Positions 1 through 63,018 of a DNA stretch of 64,000 bases are shown here, in pieces (within the stretch, counting starts at the first letter, position 1; the number at the start of each line of letters is the position of its first letter). Source of the stretch: Heterodontus francisci (lineage: Eukaryota); NCBI RefSeq assembly GCF_036365525.1, contig NC_090376.1, forward strand, positions 92,361,914-92,425,913, in the 5' to 3' direction. Below the pieces are notes generated by a model. It ran no database searches. It was not told the DNA's origin and worked only from the letters and a program-made list of their open reading frames with translations. The position numbers and the translations under genes are program-made.

Positions 1-466
1 TCTCCTACTACCCTTACAATCTTTTATTCTCTCTACACTTGAATGACTTCCTGTACCATGATGTCATGGTCAGGTTGCTCATCCACTCTGCAGCCCCCAC
101 TCTCATCCAAACAAGTTGAAAGAACCTCAGACCTGTTGGACAGTCGTAAAGGCTGAGGCTCCTGCACTCCTGCCTTCTGGGACCCCTTACCTGCCTCAGC
201 TGCAGCCACGCTCTCCTGTCCCTGACCACTGACCAAATCAGAAGACCCTATCCTAAGGGGTGTGACCACCTCCTGGTACAAAGTGTCCAGGTAACTTTCC
301 CCTCCCTGATTTGTCGCAGTGTCTGCTGCTTGGCCTCCAGTTCAGTGAATCTGAGCCAAAGCTCTTTGCACTGCAAACACTTACTGCAGATATGTTTGCC
401 CTACATTACACTGGCATCCAGGAGCTCCCACATGCTGCAGCCGTGACACATCACCTGTCCTGCCAT
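1..466 (-). pseudogene. CR1 ORF1 N-terminus (CxxC...CxxC zinc finger, coiled coil, leading toward a GDSL/SGNH esterase)
   Basis: Translates MAGQVMCHGCSMWELLDASVM*GKHICSKCLQCKELWLRFTELEAKQQTLRQIREGESYLDTLYQEVVTPLR..., with one in-frame stop. It ends GTAGTAGGAGA (VVG-D) at the window edge, typical of the CR1 ORF1 esterase start. Confidence 0.75.
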
Positions 467-734
467 CCTTATTGTGTTTCAACTAAATACTTAATTATTT
501 TATCCAATTATTTATTTTATTTTCCTTTTTATGTGTTTTATTAAGCTTACCATTAGTTCCTTTATTATTTTTAACGTTAGGATTAGAATAGACCTTAACC
601 ACTTAGATACTCACCTAATAGCTAGCTTCTTGCCCAGCCAATCACCTACCTGCTTGCTTGTGATGTCACACTCGATTTTCTTTGAAGGACTATTTCTACT
701 GAACTGGATAGAATGGAGGCTAGCCTGTCCCCAC

Positions 735-1390
735 ACACCGCGCTCTTTTTGAAGTGAAGCCTCTCCCTGCACTCCGCGCTGTTTTTGAAGTGAAGGCACT
801 CCCCGCAGTCTGCACTCTTTTTGAAGTGAAGCCTCTCCCAACACGCTGCGCTCTTTCTGAAGTGAAGCCTTTCCCAGCACTCTGCACTCTTTTTGAAGTG
901 AAGCCTCTCCCAGCATTCTGCGCTCTTTTTGAAGTGAAGCCTCTCCCAGCACTTCGCGTTCTTTTTGAAGTGAAGCCTCTGCCAGCACTCCGTGCTCTTT
1001 TTGAAGTGAAGGCTCTCCCAGCACGCGTTCTTTTTGAAGTGAAGTCTCTGCCAGCACTCTGCATTCTTTTTGAAGTGAAGCCTTTCCCCGTACTCAGCGC
1101 TTTTTTTGAAGTGAAGCTTGTCCCAGCACTCCGCGCTTTTTTTGAAGTGAAGCCTCTCCCAGCACTCTGCTCTCTTTTTGAAGTGAAGCCTCTCCTAGCA
1201 CTCTGCGCTCTTTTTGAAGTGAAGCCTCTCCCAGCACTCTGCACTCTATTTGAAGTGAAGCCTCTCCCCGTACTCCGCGCTTTTTTTGAAGTGAAGCCTC
1301 TCCCCGTACTCCGCGCTTTTTTTGAAGTGAAGCCTCTCCCAGCACTCTGCACTTTTTTTTTGAAGTGAAGCTTCTCCCGCCCTCCCTGCT
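735..1390. repeat. Tandem array, ~18 copies of a 36-bp unit (one unit is 33 bp)
   Basis: Consensus ~TTTTTGAAGTGAAGCCTCTCCCAGCACTCTGCGCTC. The ORF track shows the matching 12-aa periodicity (KPLPALCALFEV). Confidence 0.95.
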
Positions 1391-1404
1391 CTTTTCAAAC
1401 TTTC

Positions 1405-1980
1405 GGTGCCAGTTCTCTGCAAGAGCAACTCAGCTCGTCCCAGTCCCCTGCTCTTTCCCTATAGTCCTGCAAATGTTTTCTCTTTAGTTGCTTATCCAAT
1501 CTCCTTTTGAAAGCTCCTGTCCTATCTGCCTCCACCACACACTCAGGTAGTGCATTCCAGATCCTAACCACTTGCTACGTAAAAGAGGTTTTCCTCATGT
1601 TGCCGTTGGTTCTTTTGCCAGTTACCTTAAATCGATGTCCTTTGGTTCTCGATCCTTCCCCCAATGAGAACAGTATCTCTCTATCTACTCTATGATTTTC
1701 AATACTTCTGTCAAATTTCCTGTCAACTTTCTCTTCTCAACCCTAGCTTCTCCAATCTATCCACATAACTCCCTTATCCCTGGAACCATTCATGTAAATC
1801 TTTTCTCTAAAGCCTGAAGTGCGGTGCCCAGAATTGGACACAATACTCCAGTTGAGGCGAAAACAGAGTTTTATATAGGTTCATGATAACTTCCTTGCTT
1901 TTGTACTTTATGCCTCTATTTATAAAAGGCAGGACCTCTCATGCCTTTTTAACCACTTTCTCATCCTGTCTGCCACTGTC
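1405..1980 (-). mobile_element. CR1 3' fragment (RT C-terminus and 3'UTR)
   Basis: Minus-strand LEYCVQFWAPHF motif (plus strand gtgcccagaattggacacaatactccag) and a CR1-type 3'UTR. Confidence 0.85.
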
Positions 1981-2558
1981 AACTTCAGTTTTCTGTAAAT
2001 CTCATGGTAATCAAGTAAAAGCATACTGTATTCTGTTTCACAGGTAGAAGAGAAAGTAAATTTCTTGCTTTCAGATTCTGTTAGACCAAGTGCTTTTTTG
2101 ATCTGTGCTTGCATTGGGCTGAGTACCTTGCCACAAGAAAGACCTTGGAAAATGTAAGCTCTAAAGTCTTGTATCTAGTGTGCATCTGTAGTGTCTGAAA
2201 GCGTCCATCACACTTGCAAGAATCACACATCCACAGTGCCCATCATCCTTACAAGGGTCACGTATCCACTGTGCCCATCACATTGGCATCTGATTACCTC
2301 AAATATATTCCTTTAAAAAGTTTTTTTAAAAATCAGTTACTGAAAGAATAGGCACTGCAGGAAATATGAATAAACAGGTAGGAAACCTAACAAAGCTAAC
2401 CATATAATTCAAAGTGTTCTTTTAAATTAGTTCAAGCAACCATTTCAGTAACTTTAGTCCTTAAAATATATTACTATAAAAAGTTAAAGAATTCACAAAA
2501 CATATCATTAGACTAATCCAAACTGTTGTCTCTGATTCTTGGAAGTGCTTGAAATGAT

Positions 2559-2944
2559 GGGCTGGATTTTATGGGCTCCAATGGGACAGGAACAGAGGCG
2601 GGGGTGGTGGGGTTCCTATAAAATTGTGTCGGATGGCAGAGGGCGGAGTGCCTGTCACCTTACCGATGCCTTCCGATATAGTCCAAGACAGGGAAAGCTG
2701 AGGACGGCCTTCCCGCCCCAGGCCAATTGAGGACCTTAAGGTCTTCCTGCAGTACCGGCAGTGGCCGGTGCTCCCAGTGGCGCTGCCAGTCTTTCGATTG
2801 GCTGGCAGTTCTTGGAGACAGGAGCTCACTCTTCAAAGAGATGGCATCCCCAATGGCGGCGTGCAAATAATTGCCTGCCCATGTGTAATTGCAATGGGGG
2901 TCCTACGGAGGGCCGAGTCAGGGTCTCCCCGCACATTCCAGCCC
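2559..2944. mobile_element. Harbinger-type MITE
   Basis: Ends GGGCTGGATTTT ... ACATTCCAGCCC, the same TIR family as other elements in the window. GC-rich interior; no clear TSD. Confidence 0.6.
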
Positions 2945-4014
2945 ACCGCTGAGATTCAGTCATCAGAACAAAATTCAACTGAATAAGGCTTGACCCTTTA
3001 TCAGAGGACCAGGTTTTGAGTTCTTTTTCATTCCTATAGCTATCATTGTTTATGTGAAACTTCTGTAAACGAAGCTAAATGGATTGCGTGCCAGCACTCC
3101 CAGGGTGCACCTATTATGACGTGCAAACATCCAGCCTGCCGTGCCTGCTGTTTAAGGCTACAGCACTTTTTTTAGTTTAATGAATATGGAACAAGACTTG
3201 CAAAAAGGAACACAAAGCATGCTGTATGACTGACTGGTCTTGCTGTCAATCACTTAAAAAATCCTGATTCAAACTTTTTTTTGAGATGTGTATAACTTTT
3301 CAGAAGAAAGCAGATGATATCAGCAGAAAGCCTATCTATTCACCGTGTTCCAAGGCATTTGTAAGCCTGCTCCCCATCCCTCCATTGATTGAAATCCAGC
3401 AACAACATTATTACACCACATCAACCCTCTCTATTACCTCATCAAAAAATTTAACTGAGTCGGTTAAACACTGTTTAAGATTTGGTGTTTGCTTTAATTT
3501 GATCATAAGACTTAGATCAATTACAATTACAGAATAAGTTGGGAGAGCAGATCTAAAAGGGACTTCCAGCTCAGACTAATGACAAAACCACGTGGGTATG
3601 AGGGTGTTTTCACAAGTTTCACAGACCTTAAGTTTTCCACAATAAGCACAAACTCTTGATACTTAGCAAAGGGCAGTGGTCAGCAGTTGTGTTTGCCATG
3701 GAACACTAGTCCTCGATCTCCAGTTAACTGGACACCTTGTCTCTTGGCTGAAATCCATCTTCTGTCTTCTCTTCTTGATGATGCGCACATAGTGTCTAAC
3801 AAAAGCTTTGAGTTTTATTAATGTTTCTATAAACATCAATGGCTCAGTCAACAGATATTGATTTCCCTTTTTAAATGTAGTGCTTGATCCTGAATCAATT
3901 CCTTTCCCTTGGTATTTGTTTCAAAGATCCACTGTTCTTGCTTGGAGGCTTATAAATGTTTATACTTGTGTCCAAGTTAAATAGATTAACCTCAGCTTTC
4001 ATTATTTGGGAGAG

Positions 4015-57030: not shown

Positions 57031-59104
57031 GTGATGGAGTATGTTCCCTCAAAGGGGAAAAGTAGGGCAAATAAATCCAGAGCTGCCTGGATGACAAAAG
57101 AGATAGCGATTAAGGTAAAGAAGAAAAAGTGTGCTTATGACAGATGCCAGGTAGAAAATACTATTGAGAACCAGGCTGAATATAGAAGGTCCAGAGGGGA
57201 AGTGAAAAAGCAAATAAGGGAAGCAAAGGGAGAGCATGAAATGAGGCAGGCAGCAAGTATTAAAGGAAATTAAAGCATTAAAGGAAATCCCAAAGTTTTC
57301 TATAGGCATATAAATAGTAAAAGTGTGGTAAAAGGAGGAGTGGGGCCGATTAGGGACCAGAAAGGGAATTTACACATGGAGGCAGAGGGCATAGCTGAGG
57401 TATTAAATGAATACTTTGCATCTGTCTTTACCAAGGAAGAAGATGCAACCCAGGCAATGATAAAAGAGGAGGTAAGTCAGACACTAGAGGGGTTTCAAGT
57501 TGATAAATAGGAAGTATTAGATAGGCTGTCTGTACTTAAAGTGGATAAAGCACCAGGACCAGATGAGATGCATTCAAGGATACTGAGGGAAGTGAGAGTG
57601 GAAATCCCAGAGACACTGGCCATAATTTTTCAGTCTTGCTTAGTCTCAGGGGTGGTGCCAGAGGACTGGAGAATTGTCAACGTTACACCCTTGGTTAAAA
57701 AAGGGTGTAAAGATAAGCCCAGCAATTACAGGCCATTCAGTTTAACTTCGATATGGGAAAAGTTCTAGAAAAAGTAATTCTGGACAAAATCAATAGTCAC
57801 ATGGACAAATGCGAATTAATTAAGGAAAGCTAGCATGGATTTCTTACGAGAAAATCATGTTTAACTAACTTGCTGGAGTTTTTTGAGGAGATAACAGAGA
57901 GGGTTGATGAGGGCAATGCTGTTGATGTGGTGTACATGGACTTTCAAAAGGTGTTTGATACAGTGCCACACAACAGACTTATGAGCAAACTTGTAGCTCA
58001 TGGAACAAAAATGACGGTAGCAACATGGATACAAAATTGGATGAGTGACAGGAAACAAAGAGTAGTGGTTAATGGGTGTTTTTTGGGCTGGGGGGAGGTT
58101 TGTAGTGGAGTTCTCTAGGGATCAGTGCTGGGACCCTTGCTTTTCCTGATATAGATTAATGACCTAGACTTTGGTGTACAGGGCACAATTTCAAAGTTTA
58201 CAGATAATACGAAACTTGGAAGCATTGTGAACTGTGAGGACGGTAATGTCGAACTTCAAAAGATCATAGACAAGTTGGTGGAATGGGCAGACAGGTGGCA
58301 GATGAAGTTCAATGCAGAGAAATGTGAAATGATTCATTTTGGTAGGAAGAACATGGAGATACAGTACAGAATAAAGGATACATTTCGAAAGGAGGTGCAG
58401 GAGCAGAGGGCCCTGGGTGTATATGTGCATAAGTCATTGAAGGTGGCAGGACAGTTTGAGAAAACAGTCAATAAAACATGCAGTATCCTGGGCTTAATTA
58501 ATAGGGGCATAGAGTACAAGAGCAAGGAAGTTAGGTTGAACTTGTATAAGATGCTCCTTTGGCCTCAGCTGGAGTATTGTGTCCAGTTCTGGGCTCCGCA
58601 CTTTAGGAAAGACGTTGGAGAAAGTACAGAAAAGATTCACGAGAATGGTTCCAGGGATGGGGAATTTCAGTTATGAAGATAGATTTGAGAAGTTAGGACA
58701 GTTTTCCTTGGAGAAGTGAAGACTGAGAGGTGATTTGATAGAGGTATTCAGAAGTATGAGGGGTCTGGACGGAGTAGATGGAGAGAAACTGTTCCCACTC
58801 ATGAAAGGATCAAGAACGAGTGGGCACAGATTGTAGGTATTTGGTAAGAGAAGCAATAGTGACATGAAAAACTTTTTCATGCAGCGAGTGGTTAAGGTCT
58901 GGAATGCGCTGCCTGAGAACGTGGTGGAGGCAGGTGCAGTTGAAGTATTCAAAAGGAAATTGGACAGTTTTATGAAAAGGAAGAATGTGCAGGGTTATGG
59001 GGAGAAGGCAGGGGAATGGAACTGAGGGAATTGCTCTTTTGGAGAGCCAGTGTGGACACAATGGGCCGAATAGCCGCCTTCTGCACTGTAACGATTCTGT
59101 GATT
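57031..59104 (+). mobile_element. CR1 (tether, RT and 3'UTR), decayed
   Basis: DKAPGPDEMH, YMDFQKVFD and LEYCVQFWAPHF motifs; gattctgtgatt tail. Confidence 0.92.
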
Positions 59105-59815
59105 TTCAAAGGGAAGGGGGAGCTGGCAACCTGCACATCTCCAATTAATTGTTTGTTGAACTCATTGTGGAGCTCTTTTGGAGTATGGGGAGCAATGGTT
59201 AGTAATTTTCAAATGGCAAGCACAGGGAAGATGGAATATCTGGGACATGTTTAAGCATAGCTGTTGGGAACACAGCAGGGAGCCATTAGACTGCAGTGTG
59301 AAAAAATTGTACAGAAAGGGACATTTAAGCTCAGTTGCTCATGCAGTGGTACAGAGTTGCCATCGCTAGAGCTGAGAGGCTTGATTTTGTGAGGGCAGTG
59401 TGACTGGGCTCTCGAAAGACACATGAGGCTGCTGGCATGCATGGCCACCTCTAACCATGCCTGCTTAGTTTGGCTCCCTGGAGCTCTTCTTCCAGAAGAA
59501 GGGAAGAGTGCAACTCTTATGTCCGCCACAGCCTCGATCAGGGGCTCAAGGCAGACATCAGAAAAATGTGGGGCTGCCTGGGACAGCAGTCCAAACCACC
59601 GCTTGCCCTCTGCTCTCCTTGCTCATCTATTCCCAAAGGGAACGGAAAGCCCAATTATGGCTGTTGTTTGCTTTTAAATTATCCCTCCGTGCTTAGCTCC
59701 CGCCTCCTGACCTGGCGCCACACCCCTAATTGAACGTTGAGCTTGAATCCGTGCCAATTAGTGGCTGTCACTTTGAAAATTGCATTGCATTACTGACCCT
59801 GATGCGGAGCATACT

Positions 59816-59905
59816 GGCGGTGGCATACAGGTATTGTCACTGGACTAGTAATCCAGAGACCGAGGGTATTGTTCTGGGGACATGGGTTCAAATCCCACCA
59901 CAGCA
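59816..59905 (+). promoter_or_regulatory. tRNA-derived internal Pol III promoter (A and B boxes)
   Basis: A-box-like TGGCATACAGG at 59821-59831, anticodon-like arm CTGGA-CTAGTAA-TCCAG at 59840-59856, B box GGTTCAAATCC at 59885-59895. Confidence 0.7.
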
Positions 59906-62900
59906 GAAGTTGGAATTTGAATTCGATTAATAAATCTGGAATTAAAAAGCTAGTCTAATGATGGCCATGAAACCATTGTCGATTGTTGTAAAAACCCATC
60001 TGGATCACTAATGTCCTTTAGGAGAGGAAATCTGCTGTACTTACCTGTTCTGGCCAACATGTGACTCCAGACCCACAGCAATGTGATTGACTCTTACATG
60101 CCCTCTGAAATGACTCAGCAGGCCACTCAGTTACGAAGTCCATAAAAAGGAATGAAACTGGACGGACCACCCAGCATCGACCTAGGCACCGGAAATGACA
60201 ACGGCAAACCCAGCCCTGCAAAGTCCTCCTTACTAACATCTGGGGGCGTGTGCGAAAGTTGGGAGAGCTCTCCCACAGACGAGTCAAGCAACAGCCTGAC
60301 TTAGTCATTCTCACGGAATCATACCTGACAATGTCCCCAGACACTGCCATCACCATCCCTGAGTATGTCCTGTCCCACCGGCAGGACAAACCCAGCAGAG
60401 ATGGCGGTACACTGGTATACATTCGGGAGAGAGTTGCCCTGGGAGTCCTCAACATCGACTCCGGACCCCATGAAGTCTCATGGCATCAGGTCAAACATGG
60501 ACAAGGAAACCTCCTGCTGATTACCACCTACCGCCCTCCCTCAGCTGATGAGTCAGTACTCCTCCATGTTGAACAGCACTTGGAGGAAGCATTGAGGGTG
60601 GCAAGGGCACAGAATTGTACTCTGGGTGGGGGACTTCAATGTCCATTACCAAGAGTGGCTCGGTAGCACCACTACTGACCAAACTGGCCAAGTCCTAAAG
60701 GACATATCTGCTAGACTGGGTATGTGGCAGGTGGTGAGGGAACCAACAAGAGGGGAAAACATACTTGACCTCGTGCTCACCAATCTGCCTGCCGCAGATG
60801 CATTTGTCCATGACAGTATTGGTAGGAGTGACCACCGCAGAGTCGTTGTGGAGATGAAGTCCCGCCTTCACATTGAGAATACCCTCCTTCGTGTTGTGTG
60901 GCACCACCACCGTGCTAAATGGGATAGATTTTGAATAGATCTAGCAATGCAAAACTGGGCATCCATGAGGCACTGTGGGCCATCAGCAGCAGCAGAATTG
61001 TACTCAACCACAATCTGTAACCTCATGGCCCAGCATATCCCCCACTCTACCATTACCATCAAGCCAAGAGACCAACCCTGGTTCAATGAATAATGCAGGA
61101 GGGCATGCCAGGAGCAACACCAGGCATACCTCAAAATGAGGTGTCAACCTGGTGAAGCTACAATACAAGACTATGTGCGTGCAAAACTGCATAAGCAGCA
61201 TGCGATAGACAGAGCTAAGCAATCCCATACCCAACGGATCAGATCGAAACTCTGCAGTGCTGCCACATCCACTGGTGGACAATTAAACAACCTACTGGAG
61301 GAGGTGGCTCCACAAATATCCCCCTCCTCAATGATGGGGGAGACCAGTACATCAGTGCAAAAGATAAGGCTGAAGCATTTGCGACAATCTTCAGCCAGAA
61401 GTGCCGATTTGATGATCCATCTTGGCCTCCTCCTGAAGTCCCCAGCATCACATGCCAGACTTCAGCCAAGTCGTTTCACTCAGCGTTATATCAAGAAATG
61501 ACTGAAGGCACTGGATACTACAAAGGCTATGGGCCCTGACAATATTCCGGCAATAGTACTGAAAACCTGTGCTCCAGAACTTGCCACGCCCCTAGCCAAG
61601 CTGTTCCAGTACAGCTACAACACTGGCATCTACCCTGCAATGTGGAAAATTGCCCAGGTATGTCCTGAACACAAAAAGCATGCCAAGTCCAACCCAGCCA
61701 ATTACTGCCCCATCAGCCTATTCTCAATCATCAGTAAAGTGATGGAAGGTGTAATCAACAGTGCCATCAATCAGCACTTGCTTAGCAATAACCTGCTCAG
61801 TTTGGGTTCCGCCAGGGCCACTCAGCTCCTGACCTCATTACAGCTTTGGTTCAAACATGGACAAAAGAGATGAACTCAAGAGGTGAGGTGAGAGTGACCT
61901 CCCTTGACATCAAGGCAGCATTTGACCGAGTATGACATCAAGGAGCCATAGCAAAACTGAGGTCAATGGGAATCAAGGGAAAAACCCTCCGCTGGCTGGA
62001 GTCATACCTAGCGCAAAGGAAGATGGTTGTGGTTGTTGGAGGTCAATCATCTGAGCTCCAGGACATCACTGCAGGAGTTCCTCAGGGTAGTGTCCTAGGC
62101 CCAACCATCTTCAGCTGCTTCATCAATGACCTTCCTTCAATCATAAGGTCAGAAGTGCGGATGTTCACTGATGATTGCGCAATGTTCAGCACCATTTGTG
62201 ATTCCTCAGATACTGAAGCAGTCCATGTAGAAATGCAGCAAGACTTCGACAATATCCAGGTTTGGGCTGATAAATGGCAAGTAACATTTGCGCCACACAA
62301 TCTAACCATCTCCCCTTGACATTTAATGGCATTACCATCGCTGAATCCCCCACCATCAACATCCTAGGGGCTACCATTGACCAGAAACTGAACTGAAGTA
62401 GCCATATAAATACCATGGCTACATGAGCAGGACAGAGGCTAGGAACCCTGCAGAGAGTAACTCACCTCCTGACTCCCCAAAGCCTGTCCACCATCTACAA
62501 GGCACAAGTCAGGAGTGTGATGGAATACTCTCCACTTGCCTGGATGGGTGCAGCTCCAACAACACTCATAAGCTCGACACCATCCAGGACAAAGCAGCCA
62601 GCTTGATTGGCACCCCATCTACAAACATCCACTCCCGCCACCACCGACGCCCAGTGGCAGCAGTGTGTACCATCTACAAGATGCACTGCAGCAACGCACC
62701 AAGGCTCCTTGGACAGCACCTTCCAAACCCGACCTCTACCAACTAGAACGACAAGGGCAGCAAATGCATGGGAACACCACCACCTGCAGGTTCCTCTCCA
62801 AGCCACACACCATCCTGACTTGGAACTATATTGCTGTTCCTTCACTGTCACTGGGTCAAAATCCTGGAACTCCCTTCCTAACAGCACTGTGGGTGTACCT

Positions 62901-63018
62901 ACCTCACATGCAGCAGTTCAGGAAGGCAGCTCACCACCACCATCTCAAGGGCATTTAGGGATCGGCAATAAATGCTGGCCCGGCCCGCGACGTGCACATC
63001 CCATGAATGAAAAAAAAA
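59816..63018 (+). mobile_element. CR1/L2-group LINE with one APE-RT coding region and a tRNA-derived 5' head, decayed
   Basis: Head at 59816-59905. APE motifs LLTNIWG, PDLVILTESYL, YRPPS, GDFN and SDH. RT motifs GPDNIP, LDIKAAFD, GVPQGSVLGP and MFTDD. Tail ...GGCAATAAATGCTGGCC...CACATCCCATGAATGA(A)n. Confidence 0.85.

Follow-up and report, generated by a model that had tools for sequence, protein, structure and literature searches.

The window, a 64,000-nt stretch of the Heterodontus francisci genome (6.0 Gb; contig NC_090376.1, positions 92,361,914 to 92,425,913), contains a decayed full-length LINE next to a truncated CR1. The features of the locus are listed below in window coordinates, with positions in the family majority sequence where relevant.

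57031..59104, plus strand: neighbouring 5'-truncated canonical CR1, outside the element, used as a control
59816..63018, plus strand: decayed full-length Zenon LINE copy; 38 full-length copies aligned, first 400 nt matching published Zenon-1 rows
59816..59904, plus strand: tRNA-Thr(AGT)-derived head, 50 of 68 paired bases identical to the genomic tRNA-Thr(AGT) genes L222/L223
59821..59831, plus strand: A box, decayed in the window copy (majority nt 12-22)
59845..59851, plus strand: anticodon loop with AGT anticodon, identical to the tRNA-Thr(AGT) loop
59862..59881, plus strand: hairpin insert of 20 nt within the variable region of the tRNA, an alignment gap relative to tRNA-Thr(AGT)
59885..59895, plus strand: B box, CpG-decayed in the window copy (majority nt 76-86)
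59905..60131, plus strand: body common to the SINE (SINE = majority nt 1-322), with predicted hairpins, kept in 7/7 elasmobranch rows; candidate translation element
60110..60118, plus strand: AUG-GCC-UAG mini frame, in frame, just 5' of the long frame, mutated in the window copy
60119..62958, plus strand: single APE-RT frame (PF14529, PF03372, PF00078), 975 codons in the majority with the first Met at codon 285, broken here by 12 indels
60152..60154, plus strand: conserved out-of-frame AUG (majority nt 355) opening a 46-codon overlapping frame
60929..60932, plus strand: only TTTT of the window copy, a CpG decay of TTTCG; the majority reads TTTCGA
62945..63018, plus strand: 3' tail common to LINE and SINE (SINE matches majority nt 3223-3294), with poly-A at 63010-63018

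A total of 69 loci were fetched around the best genome matches, and 38 full-length one-piece copies, the window copy included, were kept for the majority; a duplicate was excluded, as were 30 copies that were truncated or interrupted. The resulting sequence is 3,294 nt long, has sharply defined ends and contains one frame of 975 codons, and the 38 copies diverge from it by 4-7%. Over aligned bases, the window copy shares 94.7% identity with the majority, and it differs by 12 indels. It consists of a tRNA-like head, a body of ~230 nt, an APE-RT frame that is broken, and a terminal poly-A tail. An initial reading of the window, made from the sequence only, had started the element at 59816; the copy alignment places its true 5' end ~6 nt further upstream. 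The element belongs to an abundant LINE of sharks and rays that lacks ORF1, and this copy of it is dead. A poly-A tail is present at the ends of aligned family copies, and no consistent target-site duplication was found, matches of at least 6 nt occurring in only 3 of the 38 full-length copies. Two of these copies sit within related elements, one (L043) in another copy of the same LINE and the other (L062) in the family SINE, both without clear target duplication. In a further locus, a Zenon copy is interrupted by a 493-codon frame (L059:956-2434, minus strand) that we take to resemble a Penelope-type element. Upstream of the window copy, a 123-codon frame on the minus strand (59251-59622) had no Pfam match; we presume a likeness to a fragment of a Harbinger-type Myb/SANT-like protein.

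On the sequence comparison, the family is elasmobranch Zenon of the CR1 group, in print since 2026 (PMC13343379). Two 15-16-nt family motifs match the supplement of that paper 6 and 7 times, and the first 400 letters agree by eye; Supplementary Table 2 holds seven elasmobranch Zenon rows (CarCar, HypSab, RhiTyp, ScyCan, SquAca). According to the parts of the paper available to us, Zenon is defined by the lack of ORF1 and a poly-A tail, and elasmobranch Zenons are absent from repeat databases. The published elements share the head, body, frame start, ~3.3-kb length, missing ORF1 and poly-A with the present family, with no sequence difference in the material compared. The nearest database proteins are 31-43% identical and mostly 930-1000 aa long on 3-4-kb contigs, and the crustacean names among them agree with the available text of PMC13343379. 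The main text of the paper has zero matches for tRNA, promoter or polymerase III. The caution that the family might already be described with a Pol II promoter was therefore borne out as to prior description, under the name Zenon, and not as to the promoter, as none is described in the available parts of the source.

tRNA heads normally mark non-autonomous SINEs. The tRNA-like head with A and B boxes proposed in the sequence-only reading was confirmed, and by the identities listed above it is derived from tRNA-Thr(AGT). ARAGORN called no tRNA anywhere in the 64-kb window, and the sole Rfam match on the head was a sub-threshold tmRNA T-arm; both tools miss it because the 20-nt insert occupies the tRNA variable region. 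In the published Squalus consensus row, this insert by eye duplicates the anticodon arm. A pattern search combining the anticodon loop and the B box returned seven places, at three of which ARAGORN calls tRNA-Thr(AGT): two real genes and a family copy (L225) without the insert. Both boxes, decayed in the window copy, fit the search patterns perfectly in the family majority and are preserved in published elasmobranch Zenon rows from five species. The 5' boundary is sharp and lies 10 nt before the A box in the LINE (33 of 38 copies scorable) as well as in the SINE (16 of 27). In the usual SINE geometry, the Pol III start is positioned shortly before the A box. Since a full-length copy records the 5' end of its RNA, the boundary would sit where a box-positioned Pol III start is expected.

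The head-frame junction, proposed earlier for checking across independent insertions, is family-wide. A genome search with the head and frame start gave 40 scored loci, all of which span the junction, and the exact 18-nt LINE-type junction has 14,444 matches in the genome. A junction sample not chosen for similarity comprised 40 of the first 41 places, the skipped one being an already-included full-length copy. In this sample, 35 junctions continue beyond nt 500, one ends at nt 414 and four carry short internal deletions; 29 of the 40 extend back into the first 40 nt, and a few resemble local duplicates. Contigs from four organisms cover a family copy in all of its 30 bins, and in each of two of these organisms a single contig bridges the junction. 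Over the first 400 nt compared, the head, body and frame start occur in 7/7 published elasmobranch Zenon consensus rows from five species, and the head is missing from all three other rows, two from hagfish and one from coelacanth (0/3 positive). These junctions show, at the level of sequence, that the head and the coding frame move together as one unit. The head looks like an elasmobranch gain, because the hagfish and coelacanth rows lack it and the lepidopteran short derivative has no tRNA homology. A search of the H. francisci genome for an older headless relative returned the same family.

SINEs with the same head and tail, suggested earlier as possible offspring of the LINE, do exist. Their majority, built from 27 of 29 loci aligned, is ~395 nt long and corresponds to two LINE segments, nt 1-322 and nt 3223-3294, fused directly, each part with 96% identity. 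The exact SINE junction has 5,813 matches in the genome; both parts were seen at 18 of 20 sampled junction places, and the same joint was present in 4/4 examined contig sets. Further internal deletions that keep the head run from nt 336 to ~3160 (at two loci, each on its own contig), from 360 to 3142 and from 325 to 3154, which indicates that the LINE does shed SINE-like elements. The main SINE may be either the child of the LINE or the donor of its head.

The APE and RT region that follows the head was confirmed by Pfam matches, and the family majority contains no ORF1: the frame opens at nt 309 of 3294, with no other long frame upstream. The selection analysis was based on 184 de-duplicated alignments, with CpG sites excluded and shared variants defined as those in 12% or more of copies. 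Shared variants were 28 non-synonymous versus 31 synonymous with no stops, compared with 2826 versus 899 among rare variants; the amplifying lineages retained a functional protein. By this measure, the family frame is shown to have evolved under purifying selection, which supports the view of the element as an autonomous LINE.

The main frame has no AUG before the endonuclease, and the first in-frame Met, codon 285, lies beyond it. At nt 386-422, 4/4 non-decay shared variants leave the main-frame amino acid unchanged but alter the one in the overlapping frame; from these small numbers, the Arg-rich N-terminal extension is probably coding, with a non-AUG start upstream of nt 386. Two other starts were considered and rejected. 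The out-of-frame AUG, present by eye in the main consensus rows of the five published species, would need a frameshift; no conserved slippery site was seen and the shared variants favour the main frame. Read-through of AUG-GCC-UAG was set aside, as this mini frame shares the reading frame in the present family and three of the published rows but, by eye, not in the whale shark and Squalus rows.

Pol III terminates at runs of four or more T (T4+). The sequence-only reading contrasted the single TTTT of the element, rightly guessed to be a former TTTCGA, with about ten in the adjacent CR1. The counts were reproduced (one versus 10), but under dinucleotide shuffles the window copy has 1 versus 2.7 expected (P=0.22) and the CR1 10 versus 9.1, and the single-copy count was discarded as evidence because it is not significant. 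In the family majority, no TTTT occurs on the sense strand, and 17 of the 38 full-length copies have no T4 whatsoever. The suggested comparison with codon-shuffled sequences gave a divided answer: T4 alone is not significantly depleted in the majority frame (0 versus 2.07 in synonymous-codon permutations; P=0.09), whereas T3+ runs are, with 4 versus 12.7 expected and 0/3000 permutations as low. All four T3 runs are lone Phe codons, and other T3 runs number 0 versus 9.9 expected. Runs of A3, C3 and G3 are normal under the same permutations, and the T-run depletion is specific to the sense strand. Phe makes up 1.8% of the majority protein versus a mean of 4.0% in 101 homologues, three of which are lower.

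Other LINE families were compared as proposed. CR1 and RTE majority frames from the same genome (25 copies each) served as controls; the RTE control (L195-L219) is presumably a young RTE-type family, with a 1,074-codon majority frame. T3 runs are at expectation in both (CR1, 31 versus 31.9; RTE, 24 versus 26.8), T4 runs number 9 and 4, respectively, and TTT per kb is at least 5-fold the Zenon value; the RTE frame has near-identical base composition to the Zenon frame yet no T3 depletion. Relatives were drawn from 80 metagenome loci, 76 of them with frames of at least 400 codons; these are single copies, 27-41% identical and often 5'-incomplete. T3 per kb ranges from 7.3 to 39.7 in the 76 related frames, again at least 5-fold the Zenon figure of 1.37, and T4 is present in 75 of them. 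The T3 z-score is -3.4 for Zenon, while the relatives average -0.07 (sd 1.25), with a minimum of -2.9 that the Zenon score exceeds by a small margin. With 19.6% T, the Zenon frame is the T-poorest of all compared (relatives, 21.5-36%). Upstream of the 76 related frames, the box patterns, which do detect the shark head, gave no A-box match and one lone B-like match; the ARAGORN result on relatives (0/54) is uninformative about heads because the tool misses the Zenon head too. One headless-looking metagenome frame with a missing 5' end (L323:54-2789, 29% identical) has no T4 in 2.7 kb versus 5.4 expected. The distance, higher T content and frequent 5' incompleteness of the relatives, together with the T4-free L323, weigh against a Pol III interpretation of the depletion.

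According to the available part of PMC3141230, human Pol III also terminates at degenerate T-rich signals, and termination of this kind would account for TTT being selected against. In the Zenon frame, the strongest of these degenerate patterns occur too seldom for testing (0 versus 0.6 expected). The CR1 and RTE controls are also mildly depleted in 4-T-in-5 words (P about 0.035), a further point against this interpretation. Among shared variants, new TTT accounts for 1 of 21 versus about 11% expected, too few to show purging.

Considering the head, its boxes and the T-run depletion, we hypothesize that the family is an autonomous Zenon LINE with a tRNA-Thr-derived head that is transcribed end to end by Pol III, a reading we consider probable. 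TFIIIC would bind the A and B boxes of the head, and Pol III would start about 10 nt before the A box, traverse the 3.3 kb for want of a terminator, and stop at the first T-run in the flank. In the weakest step, translation of the uncapped RNA would begin upstream of majority nt 386 and dispense with a normal AUG; the structured body, or re-initiation once the AUG-GCC-UAG mini frame has been read, could assist. As in established LINE biology, the resulting APE-RT protein would attach to the 3' tail and insert the element by target-primed reverse transcription, and any internal deletion keeping the head and tail would yield a ready-made SINE. For the scenario in its entirety, that of a self-mobilising protein-coding retrotransposon transcribed by Pol III from a captured tRNA promoter, with a 2.9-kb coding strand purged of Pol III terminators, uncapped AUG-less translation and a SINE arising by a single deletion, hence a natural Pol III mRNA kept across sharks and rays, we see an even chance. 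The interpretation first drawn from the window is partly supported overall, and none of the three outcomes named as refuting it was obtained. LINEs are generally regarded as Pol II-transcribed and protein-coding and SINEs as Pol III-transcribed and non-coding; a LINE with a tRNA promoter would break this division. It would exemplify natural translation of a long Pol III transcript, and new SINEs could arise from it in one step, via internal deletion. It could also yield a cap- and AUG-independent translation element.

Pol II could instead transcribe the element from a promoter in the body or in the CpG-richer nt 300-450, the head being a captured passenger or helper and the T-poverty a product of composition, RNA stability or immune sensing. 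The low overall T content, the CpG count of nt 301-600 (12, the most of any 300-nt bin, versus 3-11), the AATAAA near the 3' end of the majority and the easier translation of a capped RNA suit this explanation. We nevertheless find it unlikely, since LINE copies begin at the same pre-A-box point as the SINE, the A and B boxes are kept across five species, and an RTE of equal composition shows no depletion. Moreover, the depletion is limited to sense-strand T-runs; splice-like and polypyrimidine motifs, whose avoidance was rejected as a cause of the T loss, are not depleted. Somewhat more doubtful still is a split of labour, in which Pol III makes the copied RNA and a different set of transcripts, made by Pol II and reading through or splicing into some copies, supplies the protein. 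Such a split would account jointly for the presence of the head, the loss of T-runs and the lack of an AUG, and contigs from runs guessed to be RNA are rich in family sequence; however, purifying selection in amplifying lineages is simplest if each source RNA encodes its own protein, and the four synonymous variants at nt 386-422 imply that the element's own sequence encodes the extension. The abundance of SINEs with this head could speak for a chance nesting at the window locus, of a SINE with a truncated LINE; this is refuted, since thousands of loci carry the identical junction, as do five further species.

The preferred reading, a Pol III-transcribed LINE, was compared with known systems. 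R2 sits inside 28S rDNA, is transcribed along with it by Pol I and is released by a ribozyme. The shark element would resemble it as a protein-coding non-LTR element that does not depend on Pol II for its RNA, has no cap and uses non-standard initiation, and would differ in carrying its own Pol III promoter and in being dispersed. The lepidopteran Zenon and Persaeus pair, as described in the available part of PMC6740152, likewise combines an ORF1-less 3.3-kb Zenon with a short element made from its two ends. Persaeus has no tRNA homology or Pol III promoter there, whereas the shark short element has a tRNA head with A and B boxes and is, because of this head and promoter, a true SINE by structure; it fits a Persaeus-type SIDE in its joined LINE ends and not in the absence of a small-RNA head or promoter. 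tRNA-derived SINE2 and bipartite SINEs, in the portion of PMC5786205 consulted, have the same tRNA head with A and B boxes, body and LINE-type tail, but are short and non-coding; the short partner agrees with this definition, unlike the 3.29-kb LINE, which encodes APE-RT in a selected frame. By eye, the body looks different from the published Deu regions of EbuSINE2 and SINE2-2_CM, and this comparison lends no support to identification with the Deu-SINE SacSINE1. The same portion of PMC5786205 states that SINEs cannot encode protein, and draws ORF-less bipartite elements only from RTE, Ingi, Vingi and R2. It also supplies a Repbase precedent, RTE-1_DAn and relatives, LINEs of the RTE clade with tRNA-like sequence, compared here by description only. 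A literature search, with Repbase, Dfam and most subscription papers outside its scope, returned no description of a Pol III-driven LINE or of this head; within the literature searched, none of the four features (head, loss of T-runs, lack of an AUG, linked SINE) appears to have been remarked on.

At the start of the A-tail, at least six of the 38 full-length copies have T4-T8 runs (L033, L046, L047, L049, L054, L066, L081). These runs likely arise from slippage, but would supply such copies with a built-in Pol III terminator.
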